Assembly: GCF_002310835.1 (NCBI RefSeq)
Contig: NZ_CP011041.1
Coordinates: 1,260,001-1,292,000, forward strand
DNA from: Pseudoalteromonas tetraodonis
GTDB taxonomy: Bacteria; Pseudomonadota; Gammaproteobacteria; Enterobacterales; Alteromonadaceae
Direction: 5' to 3'
Length of the DNA stretch: 32,000 nt
The notes under the pieces are model-generated. The model was not told the DNA's origin, did no database searches, and saw only the letters and a list, made by a program, of their open reading frames with translations. Each line of letters begins with the position of its first letter. Positions within the stretch are counted from its first letter, which is position 1. Below are positions 3,305 through 30,596 of this stretch, piece after piece. Position numbers and translations under genes: made by a program.

Positions 3305-5578
3305 ATGCACTTTCTCAATAAGTACTTCTTACTTAACGATCATCATACTGCCCATGATGAAGTCGCACACTGGCGGGTGAGTGCACTACGGATAATTTTA
3401 ACGCTCGTTACTTTGCTCTGTTTTTTGGTCGTTTGTTATACATACACCCGCGCAATTGAATTTAACCTAATTTATATTGCAGTTATTACTATTAGTTTTT
3501 TCACTATTGCTTTTAGTCTTTTATTAGCAAGTAAGCGATTTTACACATTTAGTGCAAATGCACTTCTATTAACTATCGTTGCCGGTAGTTTATCAATGAA
3601 TTTATTTTTAACTGACTTAGAGCTTGCCAAGGTGGGTTCTATGTTTATGTATTCATGTCCCATCATTGCTCTTATGCTACTCGGTTACAGAACGGCTTTG
3701 GCCTACGGTATTTTAAACATCATACCTTTTTACATGATTATTAATAATGTTGATTTATCCGGCTATTCAGGAATAGCAAGCCAATTACCAGAAGCTGACT
3801 TATATATTACAGGCCTAATATTTTTATTTTTTAATATTTGTATCCCACTTGCCACTGCGCGAACAATTGTTGCTGCCAAACGTTTAAACAAAACCATGTT
3901 AAATGCTAATAGCTTCCTTAAAGATAAAAACGAGCTTTATCGCACCTTATTTACTGAATCTAATAAAGCTAAAATTATTGTCGACGAAAATTTAGTAATT
4001 ACAGATTTAAATCAACATGCTATTGAAATGTTTGGATTAAAAAACAGCTTGAAAGAAAAGGCTGTCAGAATTGATGGGTTATTCCCTGCACTTAATAGCA
4101 AAGAGTTAAATATAAAAAATCAAATCATAGAATATAAGAGTCGCTACTATAAGAGTAATTATCAGCAAATAGCAATGAGTACAAATTATCGAGTGTATGA
4201 CTTTTATGATTGCACGCAAGAGCAGTTAATTAAACAAAACTTGTCTATGATGGAGCAAGAGAACAAACGTCTAAGGTTTAGAGACTCGCAAACGAAATTG
4301 CCTAATCGAGAGTGGTTTGAAATGCAATGCGATAGGTTAACGTCTAAATACCAAAAAGGGTTTTATATTGTCGTTACACAAAGCGCAAATAGTGAATATT
4401 TAAATTTAAAACTTAACAAAGCTGACTCGCAATCATTGCTAATTACTGCTTATAAGCGCTTAAAAGCAATGTCAGAGGGGCCTTTGCTTTGTGCGTCTAT
4501 AGAAGGTGGCAAACTTGGCTTTATTATTGGTTCAAGCTCAAGTGAACAGCAAAACAAGTTATTAATACAAATTAAAAGCACCTTAGATCAAGCTTATGAT
4601 GTGTTTGGTACTAATTACCAACAATCATTTTTATTTGGTTTTGCTAAGTGTCCTGAGCATGGTGAAAATAGTGCGATTGTTCTTAGTAATGCGTGTGAGG
4701 CGCTCAAACTCGCAGACTATAACTCGCCATTTAATGGTTACAATCAAAAACAATCACAGGCCTTTATGGAAAAGTATGAAATTTCCATGTTACTTGATGA
4801 AGCTTTGCAACAAAATGATCTGTCAGTACATTATCAACCTAAAGTGAATGCAAAAGGTGAATGTATAGGGCTTGAAGCATTAGCTCGTTGGCATAGCTCT
4901 GTACTTGGCAGTGTATCGCCCGCTGTATTTATTCCTATTGCAGAAGAGTATAGAATGATTAGCCGATTAACGGACTTAATTATTCAAAAAGTCTGCGCTC
5001 AAATTGCCCAATGGAGTAAAGTTGGTTTGCCACTTTTACCCGTAGCAATAAACATATCTTTACTCGATTTTAGCCAAGCTGATTTTATGTCAAAGTTGGT
5101 AAAATATTTGGCGGATTTTAATGTAAAACCGAATCAAATAGAATTAGAGCTTACTGAAACGTCACTTGAGGCTAACCAAGTTCACTCTCTAAAACTTATG
5201 CAAACTCTGCAAGATTGGGGGTTCACTATTACAGTGGATGATTTTGGTGTTGGATACTCGAATATTGCACGACTTGCTGATTATCCCATTGATAAACTTA
5301 AATTGGATCGCTCTTTAATAAGTAAGGTTACAAGCTCTACACGCCAAAAAAGCTTAGTTAAAGCCGTGCATGTGATGTGTGATGAACTTAATATTAAGTG
5401 TGTAGCCGAGGGAGTAGAAACCGAAGAACAGGTCCTAATAATGTCCGAAATGGGATGTAAAGAGTTTCAAGGCTATTACTTTTCTAAACCTATGAGTGCT
5501 CAGGTTTATGCTGAATATATAAATCAAAATGGTCTGCTTTTTACGACAAAAAACTTAGCTACGGCGAAAAGTAGCTGA
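3305..5578 (+). CDS. Membrane sensor with PAS, degenerate GGDEF and EAL domains (putative c-di-GMP phosphodiesterase)
   Basis: N-terminal multi-TM region followed by a PAS-like block (LYRTLFTESNKAKIIVDENLVITDLN). The GGDEF position reads EGGKLGF, which is degenerate. Intact EAL motifs are present: EALARW, ELELTE, DDFGVGYSN, KLDRSL, AEGVETEEQ, QGYYFSKP. Confidence 0.9.
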   Translation: MHFLNKYFLLNDHHTAHDEVAHWRVSALRIILTLVTLLCFLVVCYTYTRAIEFNLIYIAVITISFFTIAFSLLLASKRFYTFSANALLLTIVAGSLSMNLFLTDLELAKVGSMFMYSCPIIALMLLGYRTALAYGILNIIPFYMIINNVDLSGYSGIASQLPEADLYITGLIFLFFNICIPLATARTIVAAKRLNKTMLNANSFLKDKNELYRTLFTESNKAKIIVDENLVITDLNQHAIEMFGLKNSLKEKAVRIDGLFPALNSKELNIKNQIIEYKSRYYKSNYQQIAMSTNYRVYDFYDCTQEQLIKQNLSMMEQENKRLRFRDSQTKLPNREWFEMQCDRLTSKYQKGFYIVVTQSANSEYLNLKLNKADSQSLLITAYKRLKAMSEGPLLCASIEGGKLGFIIGSSSSEQQNKLLIQIKSTLDQAYDVFGTNYQQSFLFGFAKCPEHGENSAIVLSNACEALKLADYNSPFNGYNQKQSQAFMEKYEISMLLDEALQQNDLSVHYQPKVNAKGECIGLEALARWHSSVLGSVSPAVFIPIAEEYRMISRLTDLIIQKVCAQIAQWSKVGLPLLPVAINISLLDFSQADFMSKLVKYLADFNVKPNQIELELTETSLEANQVHSLKLMQTLQDWGFTITVDDFGVGYSNIARLADYPIDKLKLDRSLISKVTSSTRQKSLVKAVHVMCDELNIKCVAEGVETEEQVLIMSEMGCKEFQGYYFSKPMSAQVYAEYINQNGLLFTTKNLATAKSS

Positions 5579-13430: not shown

Positions 13431-13520
13431 TTTAATTAAACACGCTGCTTAGTTGATTTTAGATTAAGCGGCCATACTATACTTAAAGCGTGTTATTAAA
13501 TCACAACAAAAGGAAGGTTC

Positions 13521-14072
13521 ATGAGTAAAGTAGCGGTTATTTATTTTTCTGGATATGGCCATACCAAAAAAGTGGCGGAATTTGTGGCTGATGGAGCAAA
13601 CGCTCAGCTTATTGCAATCGATGAAAATGGTGATATTAAAGACACCGATTGGGATGCATTAAACAATGCAGACGCCATTATTTTTGGTGCACCTACCTAT
13701 ATGGGCTCATACCCTTGGCAGTTTAAAAAGTTTGTCGATGCCACCTCTAAAGTGTGGTTTACCATGGGTTGGAAAGATAAAGTGTTTGGCGGTTTTACTA
13801 ATAGCGGCAGCCTAAATGGCGACAAACAAGTCACCCTAATTAGTATGCAAACGTTAGCTTCACAGCATGGTGGACTTTGGGTAAGCCTAGGGTTACCACC
13901 CGCCAATAAATTGGAATCAACCCGTCAAGACATCAATAACTTAGGCGGTTCGGTTGGCGTATTAGTACAATCACCTACTGATGCTGACGAAACGGCTATT
14001 CCATCAGGCGATTTAGAAACGGCTCGTTTATACGGTGAGCGCGTTGCTGAAATAGCAAAACGATTAAAGTAA
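13521..14072 (+). CDS. Flavodoxin-like NAD(P)H:quinone oxidoreductase (WrbA-like)
   Basis: 183 aa with a good SD (aaggaagg). N-terminal FMN-binding pattern VAVIYFSGYGHTKKVAE and GAPTYMG. Confidence 0.8.
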   Translation: MSKVAVIYFSGYGHTKKVAEFVADGANAQLIAIDENGDIKDTDWDALNNADAIIFGAPTYMGSYPWQFKKFVDATSKVWFTMGWKDKVFGGFTNSGSLNGDKQVTLISMQTLASQHGGLWVSLGLPPANKLESTRQDINNLGGSVGVLVQSPTDADETAIPSGDLETARLYGERVAEIAKRLK

Positions 14073-22702: not shown

Positions 22703-22779
22703 ATGGTCGGTATGGAGAGATTCGAACTCTCGACCCCTGCCACCCCATGACAGTGCGCTACCAAGCTGCGCCACATACC
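22703..22779 (-). tRNA. tRNA-Pro (anticodon GGG)
   Basis: Reverse complement: CGGTATG TG GCGC AGCTTGGTA GCGC A CTGTC ATGGGGT GGCAG GGGTC GAGAG TTCGAAT CTCTC CATACCG A CCA. The cloverleaf is perfect at 77 nt with an encoded CCA, and is close to E. coli proL as I recall it. Confidence 0.95.
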
Positions 22780-22896
22780 GACTTCGACTGCAATAGTACG
22801 TGTATTTTTAAAAAAATCAATAAGCATTTGTTTGTTTGGATGTTTATTGCGCAAGCGTTTAATATTAAGCGCTTGCGCCAGAAGTTTTACACGGCT

Positions 22897-26857: not shown

Positions 26858-27382
26858 TTGGCCATAATTTTAGGGATCGATCCGGGCTCGCGTTTAACGG
26901 GTTACGGTGTGGTTGCGCATCAAGGTGCCAAGTTTACATACTTAGGCAGTGGCTGTATTAAATTAGCCGATCATGACTTTCCCACCCGACTTAAAATGAT
27001 TTACCAGGGCATTACGCAACTTATAGAGCAATTTTCGCCTGAAACATTTGCTATAGAAAAAGTATTTATGGCGCATAACCCTGATTCTGCTTTAAAGCTA
27101 GGTCAAGCCCGTGGTGCTGCGATTGTCGGTGCCTCTATGGCCGACTTACCGGTTTTTGAATACTCAGCACGGCAAATAAAGCAAGCCGTTGTGGGTAACG
27201 GTGGGGCAGATAAATCGCAAGTTCAACATATGGTTAAAAACATACTTAAACTGCCAGGTACGCCGCAAGCCGATGCGGCGGATGCGCTTGCAATTGCAAT
27301 TTGCCATGCCCACTCTGAACAAAATTTAATAAAACTAGCGGGTAGCGCAAGCAAAACCGTTAGAGGACGTCTAAGGAAATAA
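26858..27382 (+). CDS. ruvC: Holliday junction resolvase RuvC
   Basis: [18 protein letters not shown]... is nearly identical to the N-terminus of E. coli RuvC. It uses a TTG start. Confidence 0.95.
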
Positions 27383-27384
27383 CA

Positions 27385-28002
27385 ATGATAGGTCGCTTAA
27401 ACGGCGTGTTAGTTGAAAAACAGCCCCCAGAAATACTATTAGAAGTGAGCGGCGTTGGCTACGAAGTACAAATGCCAATGACCTGTTTTTACGATTTGCC
27501 TAAAGTAGGCGACAACGCCATTGTGTACACTCATTTTGTAGTACGCGAAGACGCACAGTTATTGTTTGGCTTTAATAATAAAACCGAACGTGCGTTATTT
27601 AGAGAGCTGTTAAAAGCCAATGGAGTAGGGCCTAAATTAGGCTTAGCCATTTTGTCGGGCATGTCGGCGCAGCAGTTTGTAAGTTGTGTAAATAATGAAG
27701 ATGCCACTGCCTTGGTTAAATTGCCAGGGGTGGGCAAAAAGACCGCAGAGCGCTTAGTGCTCGAAATGAAAGACAGATTAAAAAATTGGGGTAATGACTT
27801 ATTTACCCCATTTAGCGATAGCGCCGTAATAGAGCCTGCGAGCGATGCAACTATAGCCAATAATGCGGCCGATGATGCGGTTTCGGCGTTAGTGGCGCTC
27901 GGTTATAAATTGCCACAAGCGCAAAAAGCAGTAAAATCAGTAAGCAAACCCGATATGTCGACTGAGGTTCTAATTAAAGAATCTTTGAAATCAATGCTGT
28001 GA
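27385..28002 (+). CDS. ruvA: Holliday junction branch migration complex subunit RuvA
   Basis: [12 protein letters not shown].., HhH region [12 protein letters not shown] / [12 protein letters not shown]. Its start is 2 nt after the ruvC stop. Confidence 0.95.
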
Positions 28003-28009
28003 GTAAATT

Positions 28010-29017
28010 ATGATCGAAGCTGATCGCTTAATAGATGCTGCTGAAAAAACCAACGAAGACACCATAGACCGTGCTATTAGGCCTAAGTTATTGGCCGACT
28101 ATCGTGGTCAGCCGCATGTTAAGCAACAAATGGAAATATTTATTGAAGCTGCGCGCAGTCGTAGCGAAGCGTTGGATCACTTATTGATATTTGGCCCACC
28201 AGGCTTAGGTAAAACCACGCTTGCTAATATTGTGGCGAACGAATTAAACGTAAATATTAAAACCACGTCTGGACCTGTGCTTGAAAAAGCGGGCGATTTA
28301 GCCGCATTGCTCACTAACCTTGAAGAGGGTGATGTACTGTTTATTGATGAAATTCACCGTTTGAGCCCGCAAGTTGAAGAAATACTCTACCCGGCAATGG
28401 AAGATTACCAGCTCGATATTATGATAGGTGAAGGCCCTGCAGCGCGTTCTATTAAGCTTGATTTACCCGCATTTACACTCATTGGTGCAACTACCCGTGC
28501 GGGATCATTAACTTCTCCACTGCGTGACCGTTTTGGTATTGTTCAGCGCTTAGAGTTTTACTCTGTGGAAGACTTATCGCATATTGTGGGGCGCTCAGCG
28601 CATTATCTTAGTTTAGAAATGTGTGACGATGGCGCGGCCGAAATAGCCAAACGTTCGCGCGGTACGCCACGTATTGCAAATCGTTTATTGCGCCGAGTGC
28701 GCGATTACACCCAAGTAAAGTCAGACGGTACGGTTAATGCTGAGGTGGCCCAACAAGCCCTCGACATGATTGACGTTGATAAAAGCGGTTTTGATTACAT
28801 GGATCGTAAATATTTACTCGCCATCATCGAAAAGTTTATGGGTGGCCCTGTTGGCCTTGACAACTTAGCCGCGGCAATAGGCGAAGAGAAAGAAACCATA
28901 GAAGATGTGATTGAACCCTTTTTAATTCAACAAGGATTTATTCAGCGTACGCCGCGAGGGCGAATTGTCTCTGATAATGCGTACCACCATTTTGGCTTGT
29001 TACCTAAAAAAGATTAA
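28010..29017 (+). CDS. ruvB: Holliday junction branch migration ATPase RuvB
   Basis: Walker [10 protein letters not shown], Walker [10 protein letters not shown], sensor region TTRAG..PLRDRFG. Confidence 0.95.
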
Positions 29018-29043: not shown

Positions 29044-29077
29044 AAAGCCACTGTCATTTTAACGACAGTGGCTTTTT
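29044..29077 (+). terminator. Rho-independent terminator after ruvB
   Basis: aaagccactgtc ... gacagtggc followed by T5. Confidence 0.85.
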
Positions 29078-29212
29078 AGTATGAGCAAAAGCTAAATTTA
29101 GACGTATTTTACTTTGCCAATAATTCACTGAGCGTTAAGACATATCAGGCTATTGTGCGCCTGCTGTAACGTTACTGAGGCCGAGTGTAGCTGATTTGAC
29201 AAATTGCGGGCA

Positions 29213-29239
29213 AAAAAAAGCCCGCAAATAATGCGGGCA
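29213..29239 (-). terminator. Rho-independent terminator on the minus strand with no annotated gene upstream
   Basis: The minus strand reads gcccgca-ttatt-tgcgggc followed by T8. Confidence 0.65.
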
Positions 29240-29388
29240 AACAACAAGTTTAAGGAAGTAATCTAGGGAACTACGTTTTACTTATTGAGGTCATACCCCA
29301 AGAAGTAAAAAAGTAATACGAAATAAATCATATTACGAAGAACTGGATTCAATGAAATAGCTTTCATTTAATGCGCTAGCTCGGTATG
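29213..29388 (-). ncRNA. Candidate ~175-nt transcript: sRNA and/or mRNA for a 29-codon hydrophobic peptide (29279..29368)
   Basis: It is bounded by a near-consensus sigma70 promoter (below) and the T8 terminator. The internal ORF is MKAISLNPVLRNMIYFVLLFYFLGYDLNK, with no clear SD. Confidence 0.35.
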
Positions 29389-29394
29389 GGAGAA

Positions 29395-29423
29395 TAATAC
29401 CGAAGCGGCAGAATTTGTTCAAA
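29395..29423 (-). promoter_or_regulatory. Candidate sigma70 promoter (TTGAAC-17-TATTAT) on the minus strand
   Basis: The -35 is at 29423..29418, the spacer is 17 nt, and the -10 is at 29400..29395. The predicted TSS is near 29388. Confidence 0.4.
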
Positions 29424-29891
29424 CTAGAAAATTTATATTTTCAGATTAAAAAAACTAATAGCAGGGGTTTTCTGTTTTTACTTAATGTTGCATGTTAATT
29501 AACCATTAATTCTATAAGTTAATGAAATGCTTTGTTTATGTATATTAACATATAAACGTTCGGTATTAGTTTTACTATTACGTTAAGGTAAGTGTGTAGT
29601 GTTTATGAGTGCTTATGCATTAATTTTGAATAAACAGCGTATTTTTGTGACTCTTTAGTGAAATTAAGCGGGCTTACAGATAGCTTTATTGTTATTTATT
29701 TATACAGTAAAACAAGAGTTAAGTAGTAAAACTATTTTTTTAACGTTTTTTGTTGGCTATTCACAGCAATATCGTTGTCAGCAGTAAATACACTAGATAC
29801 ACTAGCTGAACTTTAATGGTGGCTAATGTGTTACAAAGTTACCTTACTCAAATAAATCAATTTGATGTTTTTAATTATTTAGGAGTTTAAC

Positions 29892-30596
29892 GTGGGATCA
29901 GGGCTTAATTTTTTAGATCTAATTCTAGAAGCCAGTTTGCTTGTGCAATTAGTAATGCTAGCGTTGGTTGCTATGTCGGTTATGTCGTGGGCTATTATTT
30001 TTCAACGTAAAAAAGCCATCTCTGACGCCTTAGCAAATGCCAAAAAATTTGAGCAACGTTTTTGGTCTGGTGTTGACTTAAGTAAGCTATATAACGAAAT
30101 TTCATCACGCGGTGGTCAATCAACGGGTATTGAAGCGTTATTCACCTCAGGTTTTAAAGAGTTTGCACGCCACAAAAAAAATACCTTTCAAAGTGCAGGC
30201 ATTGTTATGGAAGGCACGCACCGTTCAATGCGGGTTGCGCTTTCTCGTGAAATAGAAAAACTAGAATCAAGCTTATCGTTTTTAGCAACCGTTGGGTCAA
30301 TTAGCCCTTACATAGGTTTGTTTGGTACAGTATGGGGTATTATGAATGCCTTTATTGCCTTAGGTGAAGTAAAACAAGCAACCTTACAAATGGTTGCACC
30401 AGGTATAGCAGAAGCTTTGATTGCAACAGCGATGGGTTTATTTGCGGCTATTCCTGCCGTTATTGCCTATAACCGATTTGCTAATAAAGTTGAAAAGTTA
30501 GAATCTCATTACATTAACTTTATGGAAGAATTTGCCAATATTTTACACCGTCAAGCAGCTACCCAAATAGAGGCTCAAGCGAATGTACCAGCGTAA
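29892..30596 (+). CDS. tolQ: Tol-Pal system protein TolQ
   Basis: GTG start with AGGAG 6 nt upstream. Strong collinearity with E. coli TolQ ([55 protein letters not shown]). Confidence 0.95.

Follow-up and report, generated by a model that had tools for sequence, protein, structure and literature searches.

The question raised by the interval between ruvB and tolQ in Pseudoalteromonas tetraodonis is what, if anything, is encoded there on the strand opposite ruvB. The DNA analyzed (the window throughout this text) is a stretch of 32,000 nt of contig NZ_CP011041.1 (positions 1,260,001 to 1,292,000 of the forward strand), in which ruvCAB are followed by a gap of 870 bp and then by tolQRA; the unit in question occupies the minus strand of this gap. 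The initial annotation, made from the letters alone, had described it as an orphan pair of promoter and terminator and had suggested either a small RNA (sRNA) or a toxin-like hydrophobic peptide of 29 amino acids. Judging from sequence comparisons, we consider it probable (about 0.6) that this conserved unit encodes, behind a GcvA-type promoter, a trans-acting sRNA of ~176 nt which is the Alteromonadales counterpart of GcvB.

The presence of a promoter and a terminator, with no open reading frame (ORF) of at least 60 amino acids between them, was borne out, the coordinates given earlier being one base too high. The corrected positions of the promoter elements, the predicted transcript and the terminator are as follows.

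29442..29461, minus strand, 20-mer CTATTAGTTTTTTTAATCTG, identical (20/20) to the GcvA operator of the Escherichia coli K-12 gcvB promoter
29445..29459, minus strand, inverted repeat IR1, ATTAG-N5-TTAAT, of the ATTAG-N5-CTAAT type (a T-N11-A LysR box), its centre at 29452 corresponding to -65 from 29387
29423..29437, minus strand, IR2-like degenerate repeat TATAAATTTTCTAGT, centred at -43, abutting the -35 motif and 22 bp from IR1
29417..29422, minus strand, -35 motif TTGAAC, with TTG kept in the family, 19 nt from the 20-mer as in E. coli
29394..29399, minus strand, -10 motif TATTAT, separated from the -35 motif by a 17-nt spacer
29212..29387, minus strand, predicted sRNA transcript of ~176 nt, starting with A at 29387 and ending in the U8 run
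29238..29220 (hairpin) and 29219..29212 (U8), minus strand, Rho-independent terminator with the 7-bp stem GCCCGCA/UGCGGGC and the loop UUAUU

The promoter TTGAAC-17 nt-TATTAT (29422..29394) agrees with the consensus at 9 of 12 positions. The 1.1-kb gap holds five promoter-like sites where 4.1 would be expected, so the consensus match alone is not above chance; for terminator-like sites, among them GCCCGCA-UUAUU-UGCGGGC with its U8 (29238..29212), the figures were three found and 0.5 expected, which exceeds chance. It is the conservation across loci, and not the consensus scan, which marks the unit as more than a chance arrangement.

The 20-mer CTATTAGTTTTTTTAATCTG occurs once in the window, with 0.01 occurrences expected by chance. 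In the gcvA-gcvB region of E. coli K-12, used as the promoter reference, the gcvB promoter is composed of this 20-mer, 19 nt, TTGAGC, 17 nt, TATAGT, 6 nt and A(+1), and the minus strand of the window of the same 20-mer, 19 nt, TTGAAC, 17 nt, TATTAT, 6 nt and A (29387). The start of the transcript was placed from the position of the -10 motif and from the centre of IR1 minus 65. A phylogenetic-footprinting study of LysR regulators (PMC5002191) has assigned GcvA two ATTAG-n5-CTAAT inverted repeats between gcvA and gcvB, centred at -65 and -43 relative to the start of gcvB; at the sequence level the window has repeats at both positions along with the identical 20-mer. The statement that nothing explains the unit has thus been superseded: the unit has as its promoter a copy of the GcvA-dependent one of gcvB. 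Readings of the upstream palindrome, by eye, as a site for LexA, Fur, FNR/CRP, ArcA or sigma-E were dropped in view of the exact match to the E. coli gcvB promoter.

The comparison set consisted of 80 ruvB loci, one genome per species, in which the unit was searched for by BLASTN, nhmmer and motif searches. The RuvB protein of the window is 98% identical to that of a Pseudoalteromonas metagenome-assembled genome (locus L001) and 96% identical to that of P. fuliginea. The unit was found in 32 loci, always on the strand opposite ruvB, and its carriers are Pseudoalteromonas (six species), Alteromonas, Marisediminitalea, Glaciecola, Aliiglaciecola, Paraglaciecola, Bowmanella, Idiomarina, Pseudidiomarina, Rheinheimera and relatives, Thalassotalea, Thalassomonas, Psychrosphaera and Aeromonas; a plasmid collection gave no match to it. 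In the Alteromonadales the promoter box is located 370-850 bp upstream of, and divergent from, tolQ or ybgC-tolQ, and in loci with DNA inserted after ruvB the unit remains with tolQ. In Aeromonas it is placed between ruvB and cydAB.

Conservation in relatives had been proposed as a check on the unit, and across genera the 32 loci keep its promoter geometry, 5′ end, 3′ module and terminator. The conserved parts comprise the upstream palindrome, the -35 block, the -10 motif at a fixed offset, the first ~15 nt of the RNA and the 3′ module with the terminator. Conservation does not extend to the middle of the RNA, and the length varies from 91 nt in Glaciecola through ~180 nt in Pseudoalteromonas to 287 nt in Aeromonas. 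The family palindrome is C-ATTAG-TTTTT-CTAAT-G with ATTA and TAAT invariant (32/32 promoters), the block AATTTTTCTnGTTTG around IR2 and the -35 motif is conserved in the family, and a TAnnnT hexamer is found 63-66 nt from the point 5 nt before IR1 in 33/33 sequences, E. coli included. A profile of the 32 family promoters, with E. coli left out, had the gcvB promoter of E. coli as its second-best match (E = 0.036) in 430 kb of unrelated loci.

The predicted 176-nt RNA has a minimum free energy (MFE) of -50.3 kcal/mol (z = -6.1 versus shuffles), and its MFE fold has three hairpins on the 5′ side, then a small one, a stretch with little pairing and the terminator. Four elements of the RNA body are described below.

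29372..29387, minus strand, conserved 5′ end AUACCGAGCUAGCGCA (family consensus UUCUGAGCUAGCGCA; E. coli GcvB ACUUCCUGAGCCGGAA)
29277..29309, minus strand, stem-loop SL3 (UUUACUU.CUUGGGGU-AUG-ACCUCAA.AAGUAAA)
29260..29274, minus strand, single-stranded motif GUAGUUCCCUAGAUU (family consensus ACAUGUUCCCUGGAUUU), nearly invariant across genera and resembling the end of GcvB R2
29239..29259, minus strand, conserved putative seed made of ACUUCCUU, similar to an anti-Shine-Dalgarno (SD) sequence, followed by AAA and CUUGUUGUUU

SL3 is kept in position in five Pseudoalteromonas species with different outer stems (UUUACUU/AAGUAAA, UUUUACA/UGUAAAA, GUUUACU/AGUAGAC and GAUGAG/CUCAUC). Over 28 sequences, 99.4% of the cells for the six pairs of the terminator are paired, with both sides changed in 5/6 pairs (GC to AU, CG to UA); none of 500 shuffles matched this and the slid controls collapsed. 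The conserved single-stranded 3′ module consists of GUUCCCUGGAUU, ACUUCCUU and CUUGUUGUUU, and across genera it is nearly invariant in the form ACAUGUUCCCUGGAUUU, (A)CUUCCUUC and AAC(A)CUUGUUGYUU, directly followed by the terminator. A covariance model of this module (model R1) scored 69.9 bits in the window and detected no extra copies in other loci. Its last block, CUUGUUGUUU, is a G/U-rich sequence of 10 nt (29248..29239) which contains the UGUUGU core of GcvB R1. In the MFE fold the CU-rich part of the putative seed is open and the G/U part is engaged in a weak 4-bp helix; we infer that the ACUUCCUU/CUUGUUGUUU stretch acts as the base-pairing seed. In Thalassotalea and Thalassomonas (L055, L062 and L075) an extra hairpin CAACUU…AAGUUG replaces the G/U-rich block ahead of the terminator, and there the putative seed would be sequestered or different.

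The same conserved blocks might be read without any stable sRNA: the boxes would regulate the divergent (ybgC-)tolQRA, the hairpin with its U-run would be a bidirectional or backup terminator of ruvB, and the conserved blocks would be sites acting at the DNA level. The surroundings of the unit bear on this reading.

26858..27382, plus strand, ruvC
27385..28002, plus strand, ruvA
28010..29017, plus strand, ruvB
29047..29077, plus strand, terminator of ruvB itself, hairpin gccactgtc/gacagtggc with T5, read directly from the sequence
29564..29580, distal ATTAG-N5-CTATT box TATTAGTTTTACTATTA, 120 bp upstream of IR1
29775..29803, plus strand, probable tolQ promoter TTGTCA-17-TACACT, inside a block (29761..29806) conserved across Pseudoalteromonas
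29892..30596, tolQ, with tolR and tolA after it

The boxes do lie between the unit and tolQ, with the second box and the conserved block that is probably the tolQ promoter further upstream, and in several genera the terminator is less than 60 nt from the ruvB stop. The distal box is kept in all six Pseudoalteromonas loci and in Psychrosphaera, and by analogy with the far-upstream sites of E. coli gcvTHP it may be a second, distal GcvA site. The window has no ybgC ORF ahead of tolQ, and its GcvA-type box is 433 bp from tolQ versus 540-850 bp in other Alteromonadales. Against a purely regulatory role of these blocks, the -35 and -10 motifs, at constant spacing from IR1, are oriented for the minus strand in 33/33 sequences, the U-run is present on the minus strand alone, there are conserved motifs within the transcribed stretch and over 100 nt away from the boxes, SL3 covaries in the manner of an RNA, and IR1 is 433-850 bp from tolQ, too far for class I/II activation. 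The hairpin and T5 that belong to ruvB itself begin 30 nt past its stop and are absent from the consensus-scan list; since ruvB has them, its transcription in the window can end without the sRNA terminator. We regard the absence of an sRNA as very unlikely.

Even less credit is given to the peptide, for which the RNA would serve as messenger and which would be either type-I-toxin-like or a small membrane protein. It would be encoded by a single frame.

29278..29367 including the stop, minus strand, 29-codon ORF MKAISLNPVLRNMIYFVLLFYFLGYDLNK with a hydrophobic core, judged fortuitous

This ORF exists as described, with its hydrophobic core and without an SD sequence, and the homologous Aeromonas unit has a probably translated ORF of 25 amino acids, which indicates that small ORFs can reside in the family. 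The frame is intact in the window and in L001 alone, the latter differing by one synonymous and one Leu-to-Pro change; in four other Pseudoalteromonas species, P. fuliginea, P. apostichopi, P. luteoviolacea and P. denitrificans (L002, L003, L005 and L006), it is destroyed by indels and substitutions. The peptide has no Pfam or NCBIfam family match, it shows no relation to the Aeromonas peptide in either sequence or position, and the 3′ half of its ORF falls in the SL3 stem, which evolves by compensatory changes. As to the partners of a type I system, no antisense RNA or repeat of the typical kind accompanies the unit, and the sole nearby plus-strand promoter-like site from which an antitoxin might be read (29097..29124) lies outside the unit and is not conserved beyond L001. 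No conserved plus-strand terminator overlapping the unit was found, and conservation there follows the minus-strand features. Neither a conserved coding-type ORF with a ribosome binding site nor a cognate antisense RNA was found, so that the unit differs from type I toxins in both respects. Because the ORF is not conserved among close relatives and the RNA features are, the peptide or toxin half of the original suggestion was rejected and the sRNA half, with its conservation and constraint at the RNA level, survives. The chance that the unit exists for this peptide appears negligible.

Two structural claims of the initial annotation concerned the ends of the transcript. The 7-bp repeat tcggtat/ataccga (29403..29381) had been taken as its beginning; the 5′ arm overlaps the -10 motif and is upstream of the predicted start at 29387, hence it cannot start an RNA made from that promoter, and the repeat is not conserved in the next species (L002). 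At the other end a third copy of the terminator arm had been proposed to form an alternative pairing.

29204..29211, minus strand, third gcccgcaa copy, judged non-functional as a pairing arm

The copy is present (29211..29204), and the pairing was discarded, just GCC being kept after the U-run in relatives. Bases directly past the U-run are conserved across genera in most family loci (UUUUUUUU-GCC(U); 29209..29211 in the window; ACCU just after position 1602 in the E. coli locus L081), and they should fall at or past the 3′ end of the RNA.

The similarity of the RNA body to GcvB is at the limit of detection, and the sequence evidence for common descent of the two bodies is suggestive. The 5′ ends are alike, ACUUCCUGAGCCGG in E. 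coli versus UUCUGAGCUAGCG in the family, UYCUGAGC being common to both. A block resembling R2 can be recognized, UUCACUUCCUGUACAUUUACCCUG in E. coli versus GUCACUUCUCCUGUUAUUGUUCCCUGG in Pseudidiomarina (L078) and GUCACAUCUCCUGUUGACAUGUUCCCUGG in Bowmanella (L026); GUAGUUCCCUAGAUU and ACUUCCUU are kept in the window, and a closer version is found in Idiomarina, Pseudidiomarina, Bowmanella and Alteromonas. Model R1 aligned the family sequence ACAUGUUCCCUGG to ACAUUUACCCUG at the R2 end of E. coli GcvB (19.1 bits, E = 0.42 in 498 kb), the sole match in the E. coli locus and the sole match with E<1 among the loci without the unit. The UGUUGU core is carried by the block CUUGUUGUUUG, which is similar to UUGUUGUGUUUG at the 3′ end of R1 in E. 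coli. The canonical validated seed of GcvB is AUGUUGUGUU (PMC5900567); what might correspond to the R1 seed in the window is the short CUUGUUGUUU, weakly paired and located ahead of the terminator, not centrally. The Rfam model of GcvB (RF00022) gave a sub-threshold match in the window which is full-length and covers exactly 29389..29211 (E = 0.009 in a 206-nt stretch and 0.049 in the 1.1-kb gap).

A number of results weigh against the assignment to GcvB. The Rfam match in the window reached 20.5 bits against a gathering threshold of 42, which leaves it outside the Rfam family; in Bowmanella (L026) the score was 9.8 bits, and GcvB was not found at the gathering score in any of 16 family loci nor at E<=1 in 14 loci. 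A search of the family body against E. coli gcvB with nhmmer matched the terminator alone, and pairwise alignments of the body with E. coli GcvB, controlled by shuffles, gave z values of -1.5 to 4.2, mostly below 2.5. The R1-like block follows the R2-like block on its 3′ side, an order opposite to that in E. coli GcvB. With E. coli GcvA as query, tblastn detected gcvA neither in the window nor less than ~4 kb away from the unit in the 32 loci, so that the unit is neither adjacent to nor divergent from it, and gcvB is described as ‘always’ divergent from gcvA (PMC9409037). An sRNA table from CsrA RNA immunoprecipitation sequencing in P. fuliginea has no entry at the expected coordinates, a result uninformative on expression. 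Finally, a related promoter in Photobacterium jeanii, described below, may hint at a ruvB-linked family separate from gcvB.

A flush-right R2 profile gave no match. At the gathering threshold Rfam reported tRNA alone for the window and 16 loci, and sub-threshold matches by E-value (rseX, suhB/mmgR, RyhB, SorX and others) were treated as terminator or U-run noise. The sole Rfam or ARAGORN match in the whole window is tRNA-Pro (GGG) at 22704..22780 on the minus strand. In P. fuliginea BSW20308 gcvA is annotated (D172_RS11905) ~1050 genes away from tolQ (D172_RS06645; PMC11882849 supplement). Taken on its sequence, the unit may be classed as GcvB-like in its promoter and predicted working, and it departs from known members in its Rfam score and its lack of gcvA linkage.

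Another reading is that of a GcvA-box sRNA family distinct from gcvB, a second riboregulator under GcvA coexisting with a canonical gcvA-linked gcvB. The promoter architecture would then be borrowed or shared and the targets might differ, and a relation to the envelope/Tol-Pal system or to cydAB could fit the constant position of the unit. In favour of such a family are the RNA body without significant GcvB similarity, the order of the blocks unlike that of GcvB and the constant placing of the unit beside ruvB and either cydAB or ybgC-tolQ, never gcvA, and the versions outside the Alteromonadales point the same way. The 287-nt unit of Aeromonas has a small ORF unlike anything in GcvB: in A. 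tecta (L040, 5185..5259, minus strand) and A. australiensis (L041, 5195..5269, minus strand) it has 25 codons and reads MKKFVAKTIRYYKLSFVQLYQ(M/L)NRL. Between the two species 5/6 substitutions in it fall at third codon positions, with one Met to Leu change, and it has diverged by 7.7% vs 12.9% for the rest of the RNA; the peptide has no Pfam or NCBIfam match. This pattern of substitutions indicates that the ORF is probably translated, and the family may include dual-function members in Aeromonas. In P. jeanii (L076) a degenerate promoter of the family type (5389..5462, minus strand; profile E = 0.0016; box ATTATCTAAACTTAT) lies downstream of ruvB, facing away from cydAB, and is followed on the same strand (5215..5289) by an SD sequence and a 24-amino-acid ORF MARIFEKIIALYQPSFVELYKRAY, which has SFV(E/Q)LY in common with the Aeromonas peptide.

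Against a family apart stand the identity of the operator (20/20) with the same geometry, more easily explained by orthology, and the R2-like block and the similar 5′ end, which fit common descent. The unit is missing in five of six Vibrionaceae ruvB loci (L038, L056, L060, L073 and L077); the Vibrionaceae, the family of P. jeanii, are known carriers of the canonical gcvB, and the absence fits a complementary distribution of the two. We hold a distinct family to be possible, if doubtful. A related proposal, which we put forward tentatively and think rather improbable, is a separate branch of the GcvA regulon: an ancient GcvA-activated unit downstream of ruvB would be dual-function in Aeromonas and apparently in P. 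jeanii (a peptide of ~25 amino acids, MKKFVAKTIRYYKLSFVQLYQxNRL), and loss of the ORF in the Alteromonadales would have left a pure base-pairing sRNA with GcvB-like seeds.

If the unit is the Alteromonadales counterpart of GcvB, as we prefer, a working model can be drawn up, in which transcription, control by GcvA and glycine, dependence on Hfq and the targets are all predictions. The unit would be transcribed leftward, from 29387 to 29212, from a sigma-70 promoter dependent on a GcvA-like activator of the LysR type. As in the E. coli model, in which glycine relieves the action of GcvR, dimers of GcvA on the -65 repeat and on the weaker -43 repeat would recruit RNA polymerase when glycine and amino acids are plentiful. 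The RNA would fold into 5′ hairpins that vary between species and would expose the 3′ module directly ahead of the U8 terminator, by analogy the usual layout of an Hfq-binding sRNA, with Hfq bound through the U-tail and terminator. The CU-rich and G/U-rich stretches would pair with SD regions of the AAGGAAG type and with C/A-rich elements (AAACAACAAG, AAGGAAGU) and repress translation, the likeliest targets being genes of amino-acid or peptide transport, uptake or biosynthesis. The gene itself would have left its place beside gcvA for the ruvB-(ybgC)-tolQ gap, with remodelling of its body.

A candidate target inside the window is the flavodoxin/WrbA-like ORF at 13521..14072 (5′ region 13440..13550), with the translation initiation region CACAACAAAAGGAAGG (CACAACAAAAGGAAGGUUCAUG). 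This region is complementary to both seed blocks, and its RNAduplex energy of -19 kcal/mol is the best of 22 window genes, a sample too small to make the match more than anecdotal.

According to the literature, GcvB homologues have been found through gcvA linkage, and in the open-access part of the literature that was searched nothing links GcvB to Pseudoalteromonas or the Alteromonadales. What appears new here, as judged from the conserved blocks, is a GcvA-box sRNA gene that is unlinked from gcvA, has a remodelled body and is missed by Rfam. Should it be the counterpart of GcvB, the circuit of GcvA and its sRNA reaches the Alteromonadales, linkage to gcvA is not obligatory, and the Rfam models miss a whole order, annotation leaving an ‘empty’ gap of 870 bp in its place. 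The Alteromonadales are abundant marine degraders of protein and peptides, to which the control of amino-acid transport is ecologically central. The unit would also represent a natural experiment in the evolution of sRNAs, with an operator frozen at 20/20 relative to E. coli, a body shrunk to ~90 nt and rearranged, and short seeds retained. A new Rfam family, or an extended one, could be started from the family alignment and model.

Among known systems the type I toxins (Ibs/Sib, TisB/IstR, Ldr/Rdl and Hok/Sok) share with the unit a short hydrophobic ORF within a small structured RNA that has a promoter and a terminator of its own. In contrast to theirs, the ORF of the unit is not conserved, has no SD sequence and is without an antisense or adjacent antitoxin RNA or repeats, and the conservation resides in the non-coding parts.

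GcvB (RF00022), known from Enterobacterales, Pasteurellales and Vibrionales and transcribed from a promoter controlled by GcvA and GcvR, differs from the unit in location, the latter lying between ruvB and (ybgC-)tolQ or cydAB and not beside gcvA. The body of the unit is below every Rfam or HMM threshold and R3 is absent from it; its G/U element has ~10 nt and is placed 3′ of the R2-like block before the terminator, whereas that of GcvB is central and 5′ of R2; and its length and 5′ hairpins vary strongly between genera. The two are alike in the 20-nt operator, the -65 and -43 repeats and the spacing to the -35, -10 and +1 positions, in the 5′ end UYCUGAGC and in a Rho-independent terminator with a long U-run. 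In several genera an R2-like motif (…CUCCUGU…ACAUnUUCCCUG) is present, together with a G/U-rich stretch having the UGUUGU core, and the size class is the same (~90-290 nt for the unit vs 206 nt for GcvB).

SgrS and OxyS differ from the unit in that each is linked to the gene of its own regulator, and the regulators and seeds are different ones. The manner of evolution is nevertheless the one seen in SgrS/SgrR, OxyS/OxyR and RyhB/PrrF under Fur, where the regulator-binding promoter, a short seed and the terminator are kept and the rest diverges fast, and SgrS, which encodes SgrT, offers a precedent for a dual-function member such as is suspected for the Aeromonas unit.

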